From NCBI RefSeq assembly GCF_013167455.1, contig NZ_CP038328.1: a DNA stretch of 64,000 nucleotides; one strand, given 5' to 3'. Both the position numbers and the translations under genes were made by a program. Of the stretch, positions 5,006-59,661 are shown in pieces. Every line of letters begins with the position of its first letter. The stretch's first letter is position 1. The stretch comes from Escherichia coli O157:H7. GTDB taxonomy: Bacteria > Pseudomonadota > Gammaproteobacteria > Enterobacterales > Enterobacteriaceae. The notes below the pieces were generated by a model that worked only from the letters and a program-made list of their open reading frames with translations, had not been told where the DNA came from and did not search any database.

Positions 5006-5035
5006 GCGTCCGGTGAACCAATCGGACGCGCCTTT
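5006..5035 (+). terminator. Hairpin after shoB (GCGTCCG / CGGACGC)
   Basis: 7-bp inverted repeat 23 nt after the shoB stop. Confidence 0.45.
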
Positions 5036-5176
5036 AATAACTATAAATAAGTGTCTGGGCAGATACTATATAAATTAACTTAGTGAATTATTATGCTAAT
5101 GTCATCAATTAAATAAATATAATGGCGTTAAGGCTTCCCAGTAAAATAATTAATACTCTACTTCCAGAGTAGAATA

Positions 5177-9555: not shown

Positions 9556-12500
9556 ATGATGGAAATTCTGCGTGGTTCGCCTGCACTGTCGGCATTCCGA
9601 ATCAACAAACTGCTGGCACGTTTTCAGGCTGCCAGGCTCCCGGTTCACAATATTTACGCCGAGTATGTCCATTTTGCTGACCTCAATGCGCCGTTAAACG
9701 ATGATGAGCACGCACAACTTGAACGCCTGCTGAAATATGGCCCGGCACTCGCCAGCCACGCCCCGCAAGGCAAACTCCTGCTGGTGACCCCGCGTCCTGG
9801 CACCATCTCTCCCTGGTCTTCGAAAGCGACCGATATTGCTCATAACTGCGGGCTACAACAGGTAAACCGCCTTGAGCGCGGCGTTGCTTACTATATAGAA
9901 GCCGGTACGCTGACCAATGAACAATGGCAGCAGGTTACCGCTGAACTGCACGACCGCATGATGGAAACGGTCTTTTTTGCTTTAGATGATGCAGAGCAGT
10001 TGTTTGCCCACCATCAACCGACTCCGGTTACCAGCGTTGATTTGCTGGGGCAGGGCCGTCAGGCGCTGATCGACGCTAACCTGCGTCTTGGCCTGGCTCT
10101 GGCGGAAGATGAAATTGACTATCTGCAGGATGCTTTCACAAAGCTTGGTCGTAACCCGAACGACATCGAGCTGTATATGTTCGCTCAGGCGAACTCTGAG
10201 CACTGCCGCCACAAAATTTTTAATGCCGACTGGATTATCGACGGTGAACAGCAGCCGAAATCGCTGTTCAAGATGATCAAAAATACTTTCGAAACCACGC
10301 CAGATCACGTTCTCTCTGCTTATAAAGATAACGCCGCCGTAATGGAAGGTTCTGAAGTGGGCCGCTACTTTGCTGACCACGAAACGGGCCGCTACGATTT
10401 CCATCAGGAACCGGCGCATATTCTGATGAAAGTCGAAACTCACAACCACCCGACGGCGATTTCTCCGTGGCCGGGCGCGGCGACCGGTTCCGGCGGTGAA
10501 ATCCGCGATGAAGGTGCCACCGGGCGCGGCGCGAAGCCGAAAGCGGGTTTGGTTGGTTTCTCCGTTTCCAACCTGCGAATTCCTGGCTTCGAACAGCCGT
10601 GGGAAGAAGATTTCGGTAAGCCTGAGCGCATTGTCACCGCGCTGGACATCATGACCGAAGGCCCGCTGGGCGGCGCGGCGTTTAACAACGAATTTGGTCG
10701 TCCGGCACTGAATGGCTACTTCCGTACTTATGAAGAAAAAGTGAACAGCCACAACGGCGAAGAGCTGCGCGGTTATCACAAACCGATCATGCTGGCGGGC
10801 GGGATCGGCAACATTCGCGCCGATCACGTACAAAAAGGCGAGATCAACGTCGGTGCGAAACTGGTCGTTCTCGGCGGCCCGGCAATGAACATCGGTCTTG
10901 GCGGCGGAGCGGCGTCTTCCATGGCGTCAGGTCAGTCTGATGCCGACCTCGACTTTGCTTCCGTACAGCGCGACAACCCGGAGATGGAGCGTCGCTGCCA
11001 GGAAGTGATCGACCGTTGCTGGCAGCTTGGTGATGCCAACCCAATCCTGTTTATCCACGACGTCGGCGCTGGCGGTCTTTCTAACGCGATGCCGGAACTG
11101 GTGAGCGACGGCGGGCGCGGCGGTAAATTTGAACTGCGCGATATTCTAAGCGACGAACCGGGCATGAGCCCGCTGGAAATCTGGTGTAACGAATCCCAGG
11201 AACGCTACGTGCTGGCGGTTGCTGCCGATCAATTACCGCTGTTTGACGAACTGTGTAAGCGTGAGCGCGCACCCTACGCGGTGATTGGTGAAGCGACCGA
11301 AGAACTGCATCTTTCTCTGCACGATCGTCATTTTGATAATCAGCCGATCGATCTGCCGCTGGACGTCCTGCTTGGTAAAACGCCGAAGATGACCCGCGAT
11401 GTACAAACGCTGAAAGCGAAGGGCGATGCGCTGGTCCGTGAAGGGATCACCATTGCAGACGCGGTGAAACGCGTACTGCATCTGCCGACCGTGGCGGAGA
11501 AAACTTTCCTGGTGACCATCGGTGACCGCAGCGTAACCGGCATGGTGGCGCGCGATCAGATGGTGGGGCCGTGGCAGGTGCCGGTCGCTAACTGCGCGGT
11601 CACTACCGCCAGCCTCGACAGCTACTACGGTGAAGCGATGGCGATTGGCGAGCGTGCGCCGGTTGCGCTGCTGGATTTCGCCGCCTCTGCCCGTCTGGCG
11701 GTCGGTGAAGCGTTAACCAATATTGCCGCAACACAGATTGGCGATATCAAACGCATTAAACTTTCCGCCAACTGGATGGCGGCGGCAGGCCACCCTGGTG
11801 AAGATGCGGGCCTGTATGAAGCCGTTAAAGCCGTGGGCGAAGAGCTTTGTCCGGCGCTGGGCCTGACGATCCCGGTGGGTAAAGACTCTATGTCGATGAA
11901 AACCCGCTGGCAGGAAGGTAACGAAGAGCGCGAAATGACGTCGCCGCTGTCGCTGGTGATTTCTGCATTTGCCCGCGTGGAAGATGTACGTCACACCATC
12001 ACGCCGCAGCTTTCTACCGAAGATAACGCACTGCTGCTGATTGATTTGGGCAAAGGCAATAACGCGCTGGGCGCAACGGCGCTGGCGCAGGTTTATCGTC
12101 AGCTTGGCGACAAACCGGCAGATGTACGCGATGTCGCGCAACTGAAAGGCTTCTATGACGCGATTCAGGCGCTGGTTGCACAGCGTAAGTTGCTGGCGTA
12201 TCACGACCGCTCTGATGGCGGTCTGCTGGTAACGCTGGCGGAAATGGCCTTTGCTGGTCATTGCGGCATTGACGCGGATATCGCCACTCTGGGTGACGAT
12301 CGCCTGGCGGCGTTGTTTAACGAAGAACTGGGTGCGGTCATTCAGGTTCGTGCCGCTGACCGTGAAGCGGTCGAGTCCGTACTGGCACAGCATGGGCTTG
12401 CTGATTGCGTCCATTATGTTGGGCAGGCGGTTTCCGGTGACCGTTTTGTGATTACCGCCAACGGGCAGACTGTATTCAGCGAAAGCCGCACTACGTTGCG

Positions 12501-19300: not shown

Positions 19301-19331
19301 CATCTTAATTGATGTATCTCAAATGCATCTT
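19301..19331 (-). promoter_or_regulatory. NsrR operator (with an FNR-like half-site) over the hmp promoter
   Basis: Minus-strand AAGATGCATTTGAGATACATCAATTAAGATG, 19-49 nt upstream of the hmp start; matches the NsrR inverted-repeat motif. Confidence 0.55.
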
Positions 19332-52223: not shown

Positions 52224-55200
52224 ATGAAAAAGTTACGCGTAGCCGCCTGCATGCTAATGCTGGCGCTGGCAGGGTGCGACAACAACGATAACGCGCCAAC
52301 AGCGGTGAAAAAAGATGCGCCTTCTGAAGTTACTAAAGCGGCCTCTTCAGAAAACGCGAGTTCAGCAAAACTCTCCGCGCCAGAGCGACAAAAACTGGCC
52401 CAACAGAGTGCCGGTAAGGCGCTGACATTGCTGGATCTCTCTGAAGTCCAACTTGATGGTGCAGCCACGCTGGTGCTGACGTTCTCCATCCCTCTCGACC
52501 CGGATCAGGATTTCTCACGCGTTATTCATGTCGTCGATAAAAAAAGCGGCAAAGTGGATGGTGCCTGGGAGCTATCAGATAATCTTAAAGAGCTGCGTTT
52601 ACGCCACCTCGAACCGAAACGTGATTTGATCGTTACAATTGGCAAGGAGGTCAAAGCACTCAACAACGCAACCTTCAGTAAAGATTACGAAAAAACTATA
52701 ACTACCCGCGACATCCAACCCAGTGTCGGTTTTGCCAGCCGTGGTTCGCTGCTGCCTGGTAAAGTCGTTGAAGGGCTGCCGGTAATGGCGCTCAACGTTA
52801 ATAATGTCGATGTTAACTTCTTCCGCGTTAAGCCAGAATCTCTGCCAGCATTCATTAGCCAATGGGAATACCGCAATTCGCTGGCGAACTGGCAGTCAGA
52901 CAAACTGCTGCAGATGGCGGATCTGGTCTACACCGGACGGTTTGATCTCAATCCTGCGCGTAACACCCGTGAAAAATTATTGCTGCCGCTGGGCGATATC
53001 AAACCGCTTCAGCAGGCGGGCGTGTATCTGGCTGTGATGAATCAGGCTGGACGTTACGATTACAGTAATCCCGCGACGCTGTTTACGTTAAGTGATATCG
53101 GCGTTTCAGCTCACCGTTATCACAATCGTCTGGATATCTTTACCCAAAGTCTGGAAAACGGCGCGGCCCAGCAAGGAATTGAAGTCTCTTTATTAAATGA
53201 GAAAGGGCAGACTCTGACTCAGGCAACCAGTGACGCTCAGGGGCATGTGCAGCTGGAAAATGATAAAAACGCCGCATTATTGCTGGCACGTAAAGACGGT
53301 CAGACAACGCTACTCGATTTAAAACTTCCGGCGCTGGACTTAGCAGAATTTAACATTGCTGGCGCGCCAGGCTATAGCAAACAGTTTTTCATGTTTGGCC
53401 CGCGCGATCTTTATCGCCCGGGTGAAACGGTAATCCTCAATGGTTTGCTGCGTGATGCAGACGGTAAAGCGTTGCCCAATCAACCCATCAAGTTAGACGT
53501 GATTAAACCCGATGGGCAGGTACTCAGGAGCGTCGTTAGTCAGCCGGAAAATGGCCTCTACCACTTTACCTGGCCACTCGATAGCAATGCGGCAACCGGT
53601 ATGTGGCATATTCGCGCTAACACGGGCGATAACCAGTATCGGATGTGGGATTTCCACGTCGAAGATTTTATGCCAGAGCGTATGGCGCTGAATCTGACCG
53701 GTGAGAAAACCCCGCTTACGCCGAATGATGAAGTGAAATTCTCCGTGGTGGGATACTACCTGTACGGTGCGCCTGCTAATGGTAATACTTTGCAAGGGCA
53801 ACTTTTCCTGCGCCCACTGCGTGAGGCTGTGTCAGCCTTACCTGGTTTTGAATTCGGCGATATAGCTGCCGAAAACCTTTCCCGCACGCTGGATGAAGTT
53901 CAGTTGACGCTGGATGATAAAGGGCGCGGCGAAGTTTCTACAGAAAGCCAGTGGAAGGAAACGCATTCCCCATTGCAGGTTATTTTCCAGGGCAGTTTGC
54001 TGGAATCGGGCGGTCGCCCGGTGACGCGCCGCGCTGAGCAGGCTATCTGGCCTGCCGATGCATTGCCGGGGATCCGTCCGCAGTTCGCCTCGAAATCGGT
54101 TTACGATTATCGCACTGACAGCACGGTGAAACAGCCCATTGTTGATGAAGGCAGTAACGCCGCTTTTGACATCGTTTATAGCGATGCGCAAGGCGTGAAA
54201 AAAGCCGTGTCGGGCTTGCAGGTGCGCCTGATTCGCGAACGCCGCGATTACTACTGGAACTGGTCAGAAGATGAAGGCTGGCAATCACAGTTTGATCAAA
54301 AAGATCTGATTGAAAATGAACAAACTCTGGATCTGAAAGCGGACGAAACCGGCAAGGTCAGTTTCCCGGTAGAGTGGGGCGCTTATCGTCTGGAAGTCAA
54401 AGCGCCGAATGAAGCGGTCAGTAGTGTTCGTTTTTGGGCTGGCTATAGCTGGCAGGATAATAGCGACGGTAGCGGCGCAGTGCGACCCGACCGTGTCACG
54501 CTGAAACTGGATAAAGCCGGTTATCGCCCTGGCGATACCATTAAGTTGCATATCGCCGCGCCAACGGCGGGTAAAGGTTATGCGATGGTCGAGTCCAGTG
54601 AAGGGCCGCTGTGGTGGCAAGAGATTGATGTTCCGGCTCAAGGGCTGGATCTGACGATTCCGGTCGATAAAACCTGGAATCGTCATGATCTTTATTTGAG
54701 TACGCTGGTGGTGCGTCCTGGCGATAAATCTCGCTCCGCGACGCCAAAACGCGCGGTTGGTGTGTTGCATCTGCCGCTTGGTGATGAAAACCGTCGCCTC
54801 GATCTGGCGCTGGAAACACCAGCAAAAATGCGTCCCAATCAACCATTAACCGTGAAAATTAAAGCCAGCACTAAAAATGGCGAGAAGCCTAAACAGGTGA
54901 ATGTGCTGGTGTCTGCCGTTGATAGTGGTGTGCTGAATATTACTGACTACGTCACGCCAGATCCGTGGCAGGCGTTCTTTGGTCAGAAACGCTATGGCGC
55001 AGACATTTACGATATTTACGGTCAGGTTATTGAAGGTCAGGGGCGTCTGGCAGCTCTGCGTTTCGGTGGCGATGGTGATGAGCTGAAACGTGGTGGTAAA
55101 CCGCCGGTCAATCACGTCAATATTGTCGCGCAGCAGGCGCTGCCGGTAACGCTCAACGAACAGGGCGAAGGCTCGGTTACACTGCCGATTGGCGATTTTA

Positions 55201-57185
55201 ACGGTGAATTGCGCGTCATGGCGCAAGCCTGGACGGCAGATGAATTCGGTAGCAACGAAAGCAAAGTGATAGTTGCCGCACCGGTGATTGCTGAACTGAA
55301 CATGCCGCGCTTTATGGCGAGTGGCGATAACTCGCGTCTGACGCTGGATATCACTAATCTTACCGATAAACCGCAAAAACTGAACGTTGCCCTGACCGCC
55401 AGTGGTTTGCTTGAACTGGTCAGCGATTCACCCGCAGCCGTTGAATTAGCGCCAGGTGTGCGTACTACGCTGTTTATCCCGGTGCGAGCATTGCCGGGTT
55501 ATGGCGATGGAGAAATTCAGGCCACCATTAGCGGGTTAGCGTTACCGGGTGAAACCGTTGCCGATCAGCATAAGCAGTGGAAAATCGGCGTCCGTCCGGC
55601 GTTCCCGGCACAAACGGTTAATTACGGTACGGCGTTACAGCCTGGTGAGACATGGGCGATTCCGGCGGATGGATTGCAAAACTTCTCGCCTGTTACGCTG
55701 GAAGGGCAATTGTTGTTGAGCGGCAAACCACCGCTGAACATCGCACGTTATATCAAAGAGTTAAAAGCGTATCCGTACGGCTGTCTTGAGCAAACCGCCA
55801 GCGGCCTGTTCCCGTCACTTTATACCAACGCAGCCCAACTGCAGGCGTTGGGCATCAAAGGCGACAGTGATGAGAAACGCCGTGCATCGGTCGATATCGG
55901 CATTTCCCGTTTGCTGCAAATGCAACGTGATAACGGCGGCTTTGCGCTGTGGGATAAAAACGGTGACGAAGAGTACTGGCTGACGGCTTACGTGATGGAT
56001 TTCCTGGTCCGCGCAGGCGAACAGGGTTACAGCGTGCCGACAGACGCCATTAACCGGGGTAATGAGCGTCTGCTGCGCTATTTACAAGATCCGGGCATGA
56101 TGTCGATCCCGTACGCGGATAATCTCAAAGCCAGTAAATTCGCCGTACAGTCTTACGCTGCGCTGGTGTTGGCCCGTCAGCAAAAGGCTCCGCTGGGTGC
56201 GCTGCGTGAAATCTGGGAGCATCGTGCAGATGCCGCTTCTGGTTTACCGCTGCTGCAACTTGGCGTTGCGCTGAAAACCATGGGTGATGCGACGCGTGAT
56301 GAAGAAGCGATTGCGCTGGCGCTAAAAACGCCGCGTAATAGTGATGAGCGGATATGGCTGGGTGATTACGGTAGTCCACTGCGCGACAACGCGTTGATGC
56401 TCTCCTTGCTGGAAGAGAACAAACTGCTACCCGATGAGCAGTACTCCCTGCTGAACACACTTTCGCAGCAGGCGTTTGGTGAACGCTGGCTATCGACGCA
56501 GGAAAGTAACGCGTTGTTCCTGGCTGCCCGTACGATTCAGGATTTACCAGGTAAATGGCAGGCGCAAACCTCTTTCTCAGCTGAGCCGCTGACAGGCGAG
56601 AAAGCGCAAAACAGCAATCTGAATAGCGATCAACTTGCCACCTTGCAGGTGACCAACAGTGGCGAGCAGCCGTTATGGCTGCGTGTGGATGCCAGCGGTT
56701 ATCCGCAATCCGCACCTTTACCGGCGAACAATGTGCTGCAAATTGAGCGTCATATTCTTGGTACTGATGGTAAGAGCAAATCGCTGGACTCGTTACGTAG
56801 CGGCGATCTGGTGCTGGTCTGGTTGCAGGTAAAAGCTAGTAACAGCGTGCCGGATGCGTTAGTCGTGGATCTGCTGCCTGCGGGTCTGGAACTGGAAAAC
56901 CAGAATCTGGCGAACGGTAGCGCCAGCCTGGAGCAAAGTGGTGGCGAAGTGCAGAACTTACTGAACCAGATGCAGCAGGCGAGTATTAAGCACATTGAGT
57001 TCCGTGACGATCGCTTTGTGGCGGCGGTTGCCGTTGATGAATACCAACCGGTAACGCTGGTGTATCTGGCGCGGGCGGTGACGCCGGGAACGTATCAGGT
57101 ACCGCAACCGATGGTGGAATCAATGTATGTTCCCCAATGGCGGGCGACCGGCGCGGCTGAAGATTTGCTGATTGTCAGACCGTAA
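52224..57185 (+). CDS. yfhM: Alpha-2-macroglobulin family lipoprotein
   Basis: 1653 aa; lipobox LALAGC; thioester motif CLEQ. Confidence 0.95.
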   Translation: MKKLRVAACMLMLALAGCDNNDNAPTAVKKDAPSEVTKAASSENASSAKLSAPERQKLAQQSAGKALTLLDLSEVQLDGAATLVLTFSIPLDPDQDFSRVIHVVDKKSGKVDGAWELSDNLKELRLRHLEPKRDLIVTIGKEVKALNNATFSKDYEKTITTRDIQPSVGFASRGSLLPGKVVEGLPVMALNVNNVDVNFFRVKPESLPAFISQWEYRNSLANWQSDKLLQMADLVYTGRFDLNPARNTREKLLLPLGDIKPLQQAGVYLAVMNQAGRYDYSNPATLFTLSDIGVSAHRYHNRLDIFTQSLENGAAQQGIEVSLLNEKGQTLTQATSDAQGHVQLENDKNAALLLARKDGQTTLLDLKLPALDLAEFNIAGAPGYSKQFFMFGPRDLYRPGETVILNGLLRDADGKALPNQPIKLDVIKPDGQVLRSVVSQPENGLYHFTWPLDSNAATGMWHIRANTGDNQYRMWDFHVEDFMPERMALNLTGEKTPLTPNDEVKFSVVGYYLYGAPANGNTLQGQLFLRPLREAVSALPGFEFGDIAAENLSRTLDEVQLTLDDKGRGEVSTESQWKETHSPLQVIFQGSLLESGGRPVTRRAEQAIWPADALPGIRPQFASKSVYDYRTDSTVKQPIVDEGSNAAFDIVYSDAQGVKKAVSGLQVRLIRERRDYYWNWSEDEGWQSQFDQKDLIENEQTLDLKADETGKVSFPVEWGAYRLEVKAPNEAVSSVRFWAGYSWQDNSDGSGAVRPDRVTLKLDKAGYRPGDTIKLHIAAPTAGKGYAMVESSEGPLWWQEIDVPAQGLDLTIPVDKTWNRHDLYLSTLVVRPGDKSRSATPKRAVGVLHLPLGDENRRLDLALETPAKMRPNQPLTVKIKASTKNGEKPKQVNVLVSAVDSGVLNITDYVTPDPWQAFFGQKRYGADIYDIYGQVIEGQGRLAALRFGGDGDELKRGGKPPVNHVNIVAQQALPVTLNEQGEGSVTLPIGDFNGELRVMAQAWTADEFGSNESKVIVAAPVIAELNMPRFMASGDNSRLTLDITNLTDKPQKLNVALTASGLLELVSDSPAAVELAPGVRTTLFIPVRALPGYGDGEIQATISGLALPGETVADQHKQWKIGVRPAFPAQTVNYGTALQPGETWAIPADGLQNFSPVTLEGQLLLSGKPPLNIARYIKELKAYPYGCLEQTASGLFPSLYTNAAQLQALGIKGDSDEKRRASVDIGISRLLQMQRDNGGFALWDKNGDEEYWLTAYVMDFLVRAGEQGYSVPTDAINRGNERLLRYLQDPGMMSIPYADNLKASKFAVQSYAALVLARQQKAPLGALREIWEHRADAASGLPLLQLGVALKTMGDATRDEEAIALALKTPRNSDERIWLGDYGSPLRDNALMLSLLEENKLLPDEQYSLLNTLSQQAFGERWLSTQESNALFLAARTIQDLPGKWQAQTSFSAEPLTGEKAQNSNLNSDQLATLQVTNSGEQPLWLRVDASGYPQSAPLPANNVLQIERHILGTDGKSKSLDSLRSGDLVLVWLQVKASNSVPDALVVDLLPAGLELENQNLANGSASLEQSGGEVQNLLNQMQQASIKHIEFRDDRFVAAVAVDEYQPVTLVYLARAVTPGTYQVPQPMVESMYVPQWRATGAAEDLLIVRP

Positions 57186-59498
57186 ATGCCTCGCTTGTTA
57201 ACCAAACGCGGCTGCTGGATAACGCTGGCAGCTGCGCCATTTCTCCTTTTTCTTGCAGCGTGGGGAGCAGATAAACTCTGGCCTCTACCGCTGCATGAAG
57301 TCAATCCCGCACGAGTGGTCGTGGCGCAGGATGGTACGCCGCTCTGGCGCTTCGCCGATGCTGACGGCATCTGGCGTTATCCTGTAACAATCGAAGATGT
57401 TTCTCCACGTTACCTTGAAGCGCTGATCAATTATGAAGATCGCTGGTTCTGGAAGCATCCTGGGGTGAATCCATTCTCGGTGGCGCGCGCAGCATGGCAA
57501 GATCTCACTTCGGGACGGGTTATTTCCGGTGGCAGCACGCTCACTATGCAGGTTGCTCGTCTGCTTGATCCTCACCCCAAAACATTTGGCGGCAAAATTC
57601 GCCAGCTCTGGCGCGCGTTGCAACTGGAATGGCATCTGTCTAAGCGTGAAATTCTGACCTTGTATCTTAACCGCGCTCCGTTTGGCGGTACGTTGCAGGG
57701 GATCGGTGCGGCAAGTTGGGCTTATCTCGGAAAGTCGCCTGCGAATTTAAGCTATTCCGAGGCGGCAATGCTGGCGGTTTTGCCGCAAGCGCCCAGCCGT
57801 CTTCGCCCGGATCGTTGGCCGGAGCGTGCCGAAGTCGCGCGTAATAAAGTGCTCGAACGGATGGCCGTGCAAGGTGTGTGGTCCCGTGAGCAGGTAAAAG
57901 AGTCAAGGGAAGAACCCATCTGGCTGGCACCCCGACAAATGCCGCAACTGGCACCGCTGTTTTCGCGCATGATGCTCGGTAAAAGCAAAAGCGACAAAAT
58001 CGTTACTACGCTGGATGCCGGTCTTCAACGACGTCTGGAAGAACTGGCGCAAAACTGGAAAGGACGATTACCACCGCGCAGCTCACTGGCGATGATCGTG
58101 GTTGATCATACCGATATGCGTGTTCGCGGCTGGGTGGGTTCGGTTGATCTCAACGATGATTCACGCTTTGGTCATGTTGATATGGTCAATGCGATCCGAT
58201 CGCCAGGATCGGTGCTCAAACCGTTTGTTTACGGTCTGGCGCTGGATGAAGGATTGATCCACCCGGCATCACTGCTGCAAGACGTCCCCCGGCGTACCGG
58301 TGATTACCGACCTGGCAACTTTGACAGCGGTTTTCATGGCCCGATCAGCATGAGCGAGGCGCTGGTGCGCTCGCTGAATTTACCTGCTGTGCAGGTGCTG
58401 GAAGCCTATGGACCGAAACGGTTTGCGGCAAAGTTACGCAATGTTGGATTGCCGTTATATTTGCCCAACGGTGCTGCGCCGAATCTTTCGCTCATTCTCG
58501 GCGGCGCTGGTGCGAAACTGGAAGATATGGCGGCAGCGTATACCGCGTTTGCTCGCCACGGCAAGGCAGGCAAATTGCGCTTACAGCCTGACGATCCGCT
58601 GCTTGAACGGCCTTTAATGTCGTCGGGAGCGGCGTGGATCATTCGCCGGATTATGGCTGATGAAGCGCTACCCTTGCCGGATGGTGCCTTGCCGCGCGTC
58701 GCCCCACTGGCATGGAAAACGGGCACCAGCTATGGCTATCGTGACGCCTGGGCGATTGGGGTTAACGCTCGCTATGTCATTGGGATCTGGACTGGCAGAC
58801 CGGACGGCACGCCCGTTGTTGGTCAGTTTGGTTTTGCCAGCGCCGTACCATTGTTGAATCAGGTCAATAATATCTTACTGTCGCGCAGTGCTAATCTGCC
58901 GGAAGACCCGCGCCCGAACTCAGTCACTCGTGGCGTTATTTGCTGGCCGGGCGGACAGTCTTTGCCGGAAGGTGACGGTAACTGTCGCCGCCGCCTGGCA
59001 ACCTGGCTGCTGGACGGGAGTCAGCCGCCAACTCTATTACTGCCGGAGCAGGAAGGCATTAATGGCATTCGTTTCCCCATCTGGCTGGATGAAAATGGCA
59101 AACGTGTTGCCGCTGATTGCCCGCAAGCGCGACAAGAAATGATAAATGTCTGGCCGCTACCGCTGGAACCCTGGTTGCCCGCATCAGAACGTCGCGCTGT
59201 GCGCTTACCACCGGCCTCGACAATTTGCCCGCCATACGGTCACGATGCCCAGCTCCCGCTGCAGCTGACAGGCGTTCGCGATGGCGAGATTATTAAACGT
59301 TTACCGGGCGCAGCGGAAGCGACTTTGCCGTTGCAATCAAGTGGAGGGGCAGGTGAACGCTGGTGGTTTCTGAATGGCGAACCGTTAACTGAACGCGGGC
59401 GCAACGTGACCCTGCATTTGACGGATAAAGGTGATTATCAATTGCTGGTGATGGATGACGTAGGGCAAATCGCGTCAGTACATTTTTCATTTCAGTGA
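57186..59498 (+). CDS. pbpC: Penicillin-binding protein 1C
   Basis: 770 aa; ATG directly abuts the yfhM stop; glycosyltransferase and transpeptidase motifs. Confidence 0.95.
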   Translation: MPRLLTKRGCWITLAAAPFLLFLAAWGADKLWPLPLHEVNPARVVVAQDGTPLWRFADADGIWRYPVTIEDVSPRYLEALINYEDRWFWKHPGVNPFSVARAAWQDLTSGRVISGGSTLTMQVARLLDPHPKTFGGKIRQLWRALQLEWHLSKREILTLYLNRAPFGGTLQGIGAASWAYLGKSPANLSYSEAAMLAVLPQAPSRLRPDRWPERAEVARNKVLERMAVQGVWSREQVKESREEPIWLAPRQMPQLAPLFSRMMLGKSKSDKIVTTLDAGLQRRLEELAQNWKGRLPPRSSLAMIVVDHTDMRVRGWVGSVDLNDDSRFGHVDMVNAIRSPGSVLKPFVYGLALDEGLIHPASLLQDVPRRTGDYRPGNFDSGFHGPISMSEALVRSLNLPAVQVLEAYGPKRFAAKLRNVGLPLYLPNGAAPNLSLILGGAGAKLEDMAAAYTAFARHGKAGKLRLQPDDPLLERPLMSSGAAWIIRRIMADEALPLPDGALPRVAPLAWKTGTSYGYRDAWAIGVNARYVIGIWTGRPDGTPVVGQFGFASAVPLLNQVNNILLSRSANLPEDPRPNSVTRGVICWPGGQSLPEGDGNCRRRLATWLLDGSQPPTLLLPEQEGINGIRFPIWLDENGKRVAADCPQARQEMINVWPLPLEPWLPASERRAVRLPPASTICPPYGHDAQLPLQLTGVRDGEIIKRLPGAAEATLPLQSSGGAGERWWFLNGEPLTERGRNVTLHLTDKGDYQLLVMDDVGQIASVHFSFQ

Positions 59499-59592
59499 AA
59501 TATACAAAATATTTATTAATCTAATTATGGTATTTATATTTGGAATGCATTAATAATTTAATAATCTCACGTTTTTTTAAACGACTAATTAT

Positions 59593-59606
59593 TTGATTGT
59601 TATCAG
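59593..59606 (+). promoter_or_regulatory. FNR-like site (TTGAT-TGTT-ATCAG) upstream of the molybdoenzyme operon
   Basis: 9 of 10 matches to the FNR consensus TTGAT-N4-ATCAA, in the AT-rich leader 56 nt upstream of the start. Confidence 0.4.
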
Positions 59607-59661
59607 CATTGTTCTCGAATAAATACGTGAATATTTATTTTTTCATTTTCGGGAACGCAAG

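Follow-up and report, generated by a model that had tools for sequence, protein, structure and literature searches.

The spacer of 163 bp (59499-59661) that lies between pbpC and a four-gene DmsABC-type operon in Escherichia coli O157:H7 is probably the control region of that operon, with a promoter core of the FNR-activated class II type, and this reading can be held with good confidence. Positions are those of the window, which is the whole stretch of 64 kb that was analysed. An FNR promoter ahead of this operon, ECs3384-3381, is not described in the searched literature, and it belongs to the well-known class II kind, to which the promoters of anaerobic respiratory operons of the E. coli dmsA, narG and nirB type belong.

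The DNA of the window matches many E. coli O157:H7 chromosomes at 100% identity, and the features that bear on the spacer are collected in Table 1. The catalytic subunit carries the twin-arginine (Tat) signal SRRSFL and scores 1122 bits against TIGR02166 (cutoff 777.7), and the FeS subunit scores 265.8 bits against TIGR02951 (cutoff 214.1). The family assignments of these two subunits are solid. The DmsC-family anchor had no NCBIfam match. The operon combines a Tat catalytic subunit, a four-cluster FeS subunit and, by RefSeq annotation, a membrane anchor, as a DmsABC-type operon does. Its product would be a Tat-exported complex of the DMSO-reductase family, and operons of this kind are typically FNR-controlled. 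ECs3384-3381 is the ortholog of Salmonella STM2530-2527, and ndk comes after ECs3381 in identical O157 genomes.

Table 1. Features of the pbpC-operon spacer and of its flanking genes, in window coordinates.
Feature	Position	Strand	Basis
yfhM	52224-57185	+	Gene list/annotation
pbpC, penicillin-binding protein 1C, co-directional upstream gene	57186-59498	+	ORF list, RefSeq annotation of identical O157 DNA, K-12 pbpC-ndk alignment
Extremely AT-rich tract, candidate H-NS or UP-like region without identified site	59499-59592		Composition, distribution
FNR box TTGATTGTTATCAG, centre 59599.5, 62.5 bp upstream of ATG	59593-59606	+	Pattern match, positional conservation in orthologs
Left arm tGTTCTCGAA, complement of the Shine-Dalgarno region, ahead of the predicted start	59610-59619	+	RNA folding, duplex energy
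Predicted -10: GAATAT 22 nt after the box, or AATATT 23 nt after it	59629-59635	+	Ortholog hexamer spacing
Predicted transcription start, ~59641 (box centre + 41.5), leader ~21 nt	59639-59643	+	Inferred from class II geometry
Right arm TTCGGGAACg, contains the Shine-Dalgarno GGGAA	59648-59657	+	RNA folding, duplex energy
DmsA/YnfE-family molybdopterin catalytic subunit, 793 aa (ECs3384)	59662-62043	+	TIGR02166, signal sequence, Sakai annotation
DmsB-type 4x[4Fe-4S] electron-transfer subunit (ECs3383)	62040-62669	+	TIGR02951
DmsC-family membrane anchor (ECs3382)	62662-63483	+	RefSeq annotation
Fourth operon gene, 4Fe-4S dicluster protein (ECs3381)	63483-64000, continues past window end	+	Annotation of identical O157 DNA, ferredoxin-domain matches

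The proteins encoded at this locus were also compared between Escherichia and Salmonella or Enterobacter. The catalytic and FeS subunits share 82-89% identity, the membrane anchor ~50% and the fourth 4Fe-4S protein ~38-42%, and the flanking PbpC and Ndk share ~80% and ~94%, respectively. Against Salmonella STM2530-2527, DmsA and DmsB are at 84-88%, DmsC is at ~51% and the fourth protein at ~38-40%. Since the anchor and the fourth protein have diverged while the flanking PbpC and Ndk are conserved, the comparison points to a distal operon half that has evolved fast or is of mosaic origin.

Between the last base of the pbpC stop codon (59498) and the next ATG (59662) lies exactly the 163-bp gap that a sequence-only reading of this DNA had given; the flanks named there, pbpC and a molybdoenzyme operon, are borne out by the ORF list, the annotation and the TIGR02166 and TIGR02951 scores. 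The same reading had called the spacer an almost entirely A/T leader. The AT-richness is real, as the GC content is 0.221 overall (78% A+T) and 0.160 for the first 94 bp (59499-59592), and 59482-59581 is the lowest-GC 100-nt window of the whole 64 kb (GC 0.16), but ‘almost entirely’ is a mild exaggeration. The term leader would apply to only ~21 nt of the 163 bp, the part predicted to be transcribed, and not to the remainder, which would be promoter and upstream DNA. A GC content of 0.20 or less was found in just 0.07% of the 100-nt windows across the 64 kb; the second most AT-rich 100-nt stretch, at 5033-5132, has a GC content of 0.23. The tract 59499-59592 is present in Escherichia only and as a single copy per genome, which rules out a repeat or mobile-element origin.

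The claim of an FNR-like site one mismatch from consensus was confirmed. The box TTGATTGTTATCAG agrees with the FNR consensus TTGATNNNNATCAA at 9/10 specified bases, the single mismatch being at the last base. It is identical in three other aligned sequences of E. coli and Escherichia sp. E1V33, and reads TTGATTGTTGTCAG in Escherichia sp. MOD1-EC7003. A one-mismatch match alone is weak evidence, since the 64-kb window holds 6 matches to the FNR pattern with at most one mismatch and 2.2 are expected by chance. Mapping onto the Sakai annotation places two of the six between genes, namely the box itself and 19309-19322 in the glyA-hmp spacer, and three within the coding regions of yfhM, yphF and hscA; the match at 11219 is beyond the Sakai-annotated stretch used for the mapping. 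The site at 19309-19322, TTGATGTATCTCAA, has one mismatch and lies 27-40 bp upstream of hmp. It would correspond to the FNR operator known for hmp and so serve as an internal positive control.

The comparison of orthologous loci says far more about the box than the match itself. Eighty loci with relatives of the catalytic subunit were considered, one genome per species, each anchored on the Tat motif and the start codon. Of 71 orthologous loci, 39 have an FNR box that departs from the consensus at no more than one base and has its centre 53.5-78.5 bp before the ATG, and in 28 of them the box is perfect. Shuffled upstream regions gave a mean of 0.21 loci (maximum 2), and the control region from -400 to -100 gave 2 such sites in 20,377 positions. 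The loci with the box span more than 15 genera of Enterobacterales, including Salmonella, Enterobacter, Citrobacter, Leclercia, Silvania, Franconibacter, Siccibacter, Budvicia, Limnobaculum, Proteus, Morganella and Photorhabdus, and the sequence flanking the box is not alignable between these genera. Likewise, an nAnnnT hexamer with at least 3/6 matches to TATAAT begins 21-23 nt after the box in 52/53 loci, compared with 11.9 +/- 3.0 loci in shuffles and 2-14 loci at other spacings. We regard this positional conservation as the decisive evidence for the FNR box, and on these comparative grounds FNR control of the operon is well supported. The proposal that the site fits anaerobic induction thereby gains support from the position of the box across genera and from a -10 at class II spacing.

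Several aspects of a class II FNR promoter can be recognised here, which include the TTGAT-N4-ATCAA repeat, a box over the -35 with a -10 at 21-23 nt, and conservation in orthologs. A scan of 59300-59900 found no consensus sigma-70 -35/-10 pair, the FNR box occupying the -35 position, and no intrinsic terminator (G+C-rich stem followed by a T-run) after pbpC; 59300-59800 had no Rfam match at E<=1. The lack of a consensus sigma-70 promoter and of a terminator in the scan fits an activator-dependent promoter together with read-through from pbpC. In line with what is established for class II promoters, FNR in its dimeric [4Fe-4S] form would occupy the box under anoxia and recruit RNA polymerase, the box standing in place of a -35 and the weak -10 following 22-23 nt on. 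Transcription would start near 59641 and give a leader of ~21 nt bearing the Shine-Dalgarno sequence GGGAA (59651-59655). The searched literature holds no transcription start, FNR binding or expression data on this promoter.

Alternatively, the FNR-like sequence could be a chance match in AT-rich DNA, with the operon expressed by read-through from yfhM-pbpC. One-mismatch sites are not rare in the window, as counted above, and no terminator was detected after pbpC. However, the positions of the box and of the -10 are kept across many genera while the flanks diverge, and this includes loci that do not have pbpC upstream; in addition, the arm complementary to the Shine-Dalgarno region, described below, argues against productive read-through. 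We consider this alternative very improbable.

The promoters of the relatives carry a further element. With the NarL/NarP pattern taken as the 7-2-7 heptamer pair TACYYMTnnAKRRGTA, sites with at most one mismatch were found in 10/51 ortholog loci (0.06 expected) and with at most two mismatches in 21/51 (0.93 expected). The sites are at -58.5 in Enterobacter and Salmonella, at -56.5 in Proteus and at -25.5 in Leclercia and Silvania, and Budvicia has a perfect match at -63.5. In many ortholog promoters the 7-2-7 site adjoins the FNR box (e.g., L034:2884-2899, L012, L010, L035 and L050-L057). At the position of the AT-rich tract the DNA of the relatives differs in sequence and often holds such a site, whereas the window spacer has none, its best match having 5 mismatches. 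Since relatives carry 7-2-7 sites and the window does not, the Escherichia promoter is a diverged one, in which the AT-rich tract replaces the 7-2-7 site and one box position is degenerate. The degenerate position is the outermost base of the right half-site, and the boxes of the relatives are mostly perfect. With the box mismatch and without a NarL/NarP site, the Escherichia promoter may be weakened or dependent on other inputs. In E. coli 4FM (NZ_CM137007.1, L086:1615-2383), an IS1 element has inserted directly behind the FNR box and has a copy of TCAGCATT at each end. This strain is, as judged from its sequence arrangement, a natural promoter-disruption mutant in which IS1 parts the box from its -10 and operon.

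The operon segment is present in 379 of 5426 complete E. coli genomes, the AT-rich tract in 380 of them, and in K-12 pbpC is joined directly to ndk. The left breakpoint of the variable segment is at ~59475, which is ~20 bp inside the end of pbpC and not in the spacer; the last ~7 pbpC codons (59475-59498) read …ASVHFSFQ in O157 and …ATVKFVMQ in K-12, each followed by the stop codon. The order pbpC-operon-ndk is common to Salmonella enterica subspecies, several Enterobacter, Lelliottia, Superficieibacter, Huaxiibacter and two other Escherichia species. The coding GC of the operon is 0.485-0.50, compared with 0.525 for the window, and the AT-richness is confined to the 163-bp spacer (GC 0.22). 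The annotation of identical O157 DNA shows no mobility genes flanking the operon. On account of this synteny, the coding GC and the missing mobility genes, the simplest reading is that the locus would be ancestral and was deleted in most E. coli lineages, rather than being a recent import. The same observations speak against taking the AT-richness as a mark of acquired DNA, as had been suggested from the sequence at first. The locus resembles H-NS-silenced acquired islands in its patchy E. coli distribution and its very AT-rich promoter region, and differs from them in its host-typical coding GC, its freedom from mobility genes and a position conserved across genera. Neither the segment-wide high AT content of such islands nor their foreign origin, as told from absence in relatives or from mobility genes, a tRNA or repeats, was found.

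H-NS binding at the tract 59499-59592 is nevertheless plausible, since the extreme AT-richness is real and specific to Escherichia; the AT-rich 94 bp that replace the NarL/NarP-type site of the relatives may bind H-NS. A stronger form of this idea would have H-NS filaments nucleate on the tract and occlude the promoter, so that only an anti-silencer could turn the operon on, even under anoxia, and the FNR box would have a secondary role. H-NS silencing can coexist with FNR control, as it does at the hlyE promoter. The stronger form would agree with the lowest GC in the window being in the spacer (0.16 over 100 nt) and with the variability of the segment (379/5426 genomes). It would also agree with the expression data at hand. 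For example, on oxygen depletion of O157 Sakai the microarray probe for ECs3381 stayed flat while dmsA, frdA and narG went up (PMC2241611), a datum from one probe, for the last gene of the operon. Similarly, Salmonella STM2530 had no phenotype in anaerobic rich medium, where according to the authors it may not be expressed, and no DMSO phenotype, substrate, regulation or inducing condition is known for STM2530-2527 (bioRxiv 10.1101/2022.11.29.517730). With known FNR targets rising in that culture, the flat ECs3381 signal also counts against the FNR reading; it is a weak point and would fit silencing, a weak promoter or a missing co-factor or co-inducer. Against dominant silencing, no H-NS occupancy data for the spacer were found in the searched literature, and the H-NS high-affinity motif TCGATAAATT had no match with at most 2 mismatches in the spacer. 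Moreover, the AT-rich stretch is only ~100-160 bp long next to genes of GC 0.49-0.50, and the premise of acquired DNA fails with the synteny conserved across genera. Silencing that overrides the FNR box is rather unlikely, and the FNR-activated core remains the preferred reading.

Folding of the sequence from the box to the ATG revealed an inverted repeat around the -10, the loop of which holds the -10. The left arm begins 3-5 nt past the FNR box and the right arm covers the Shine-Dalgarno sequence. In the window the stem is 10 bp long, including 2 G-U pairs, and the fold of -11.2 kcal/mol (z -2.1) is moderately better than that of shuffles, 7/200 of which fold as well. The left arm and the Shine-Dalgarno region form a duplex of -12.6 kcal/mol, compared with -5.3 when the arms are shuffled (p=0.003). 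The hairpins of Enterobacter are at -23 to -25 kcal/mol, with z of -6 to -7. RNAalifold on 16 aligned promoters gave no consensus in a common register and recovered only the FNR palindrome itself, because the register of the hairpin shifts between lineages; duplex-energy tests against shuffled arms and against the arms of other loci were used in its place. By these, the pairing of the left arm with the Shine-Dalgarno region beats shuffled arms at p<=0.05 in 17/52 loci, and arms of the same locus pair better than arms of different loci (sum -251.8 versus -155 +/- 13.8, p<5e-5). Escherichia sp. MOD1-EC7003 (L004) has a compensatory double change from C-G to U-A relative to O157.

The pairing also varies with the upstream gene, with a mean z of -2.68 where that gene is co-directional (n=23) and of 0.04 where it is divergent (n=25), a difference that is confounded with phylogeny. 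The predicted accessibility of the Shine-Dalgarno sequence rises from a mean of 0.33 in read-through RNA to 0.59 in native RNA, and goes up in 31/33 loci; in the window itself the predicted values are equal (0.32 vs 0.33). The fold-back features seen in the sequence are thus a 5' arm upstream of the predicted start, a 3' arm over the Shine-Dalgarno sequence and pairing above chance. RNA that reads through from pbpC would contain both arms, and 59610-59619 would pair with 59648-59657 and hide the ribosome-binding site. RNA initiated at the FNR promoter would start inside the hairpin, and without the 5' arm it would be translatable. That pbpC read-through RNA is translationally masked in this manner is put forward tentatively, with somewhat less than even confidence. 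The fuller proposal, for which the expectation is slightly lower still, is that the covarying hairpin might act as an IS10-like fold-back insulator which keeps the anaerobic operon tight, combined in Escherichia with the loss of the NarL/NarP site and with an AT-rich, possibly H-NS-bound tract.

The repeat could instead be an element of the DNA, that is, an operator for a dimeric regulator or a supercoiling-sensitive cruciform, or else a weak terminator or attenuator that works in both directions. The -10 lies at the centre of the palindrome, flanked by an A-run and a T-run, both strands fold about equally well overall, and the inner stem in the window consists of A-T pairs with a T-run behind it, all of which would suit these alternatives. 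The arms, however, covary from lineage to lineage, as a protein operator seldom does, and the 3' arm lies consistently over the Shine-Dalgarno sequence. A terminator or attenuator is countered by the scan, which showed no terminator-like hairpin, and by stems that are G+C-poor beside the T-run. The strand asymmetry, in which G-U pairs are set against A-C pairs and RNA structure against a DNA palindrome, was 12/20, a split that favours neither. We judge these alternatives unlikely, although less so than the chance match.

Some smaller motifs were also noted. At 59618-59639 the predicted -10 is enclosed by a perfect inverted repeat of 8 bp, made up of A and T only, AATAAATA-cgtgaa-TATTTATT, with a T-run behind it, and relatives show the same layout in other sequence, e.g., AAAAAGC-gagaat-GCTTTTT. 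A ModE-like reading of AATAAATA-N6-TATTTATT was dropped by eye, as was an ArcA-like reading of the TGTTA/TGTTC repeat with its 12-bp spacing; both are weak, lie in AT-rich DNA and are not common to relatives.

The spacer shares with class II FNR promoters a box that serves for the -35, a centre ~41.5 bp before the predicted start, a weak -10 and genes of a Tat-exported molybdoenzyme downstream. It departs from them in the last-base mismatch of the box and the unusually AT-rich upstream flank, and its start is one predicted from sequence; the Escherichia version also has no NarL/NarP or ModE site. The operon is like Salmonella Typhimurium STM2530-2527, the third dmsABC-like operon of that organism, in its four-gene layout and its position between pbpC and ndk. 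In the Salmonella subspecies sampled, the FNR box is perfect and its centre lies 60.5 bp before the ATG; unlike the window, Salmonella has a NarL/NarP-like 7-2-7 site at -58.5 and only weak pairing of an arm with the Shine-Dalgarno region. The closest precedent for the hairpin is the fold-back inhibition of externally initiated transcripts in IS10/Tn10 (Davis, Simons and Kleckner, 1985, Cell 43:379, as cited in PMC2965389). The proposed logic is alike, in that the native promoter would lie inside the inverted repeat and the 5' arm, as pairing partner of the ribosome-binding site, would be present only in transcripts from outside. Unlike in IS10, the gene set is a chromosomal respiratory operon and not a transposase gene, the stem is modest, and the function is read from the sequence alone. 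The promoter-in-hairpin arrangement is new here.

Few metabolic loci set O157:H7 and a minority of E. coli apart from K-12, and this operon is among them. The FNR promoter and the NarL/NarP sites of the relatives point to strict anoxia, with or without nitrate or nitrite, as the relevant conditions. If true, the placing of a promoter within a hairpin would be a simple device, of general use, for shielding a tightly regulated operon against read-through from upstream.
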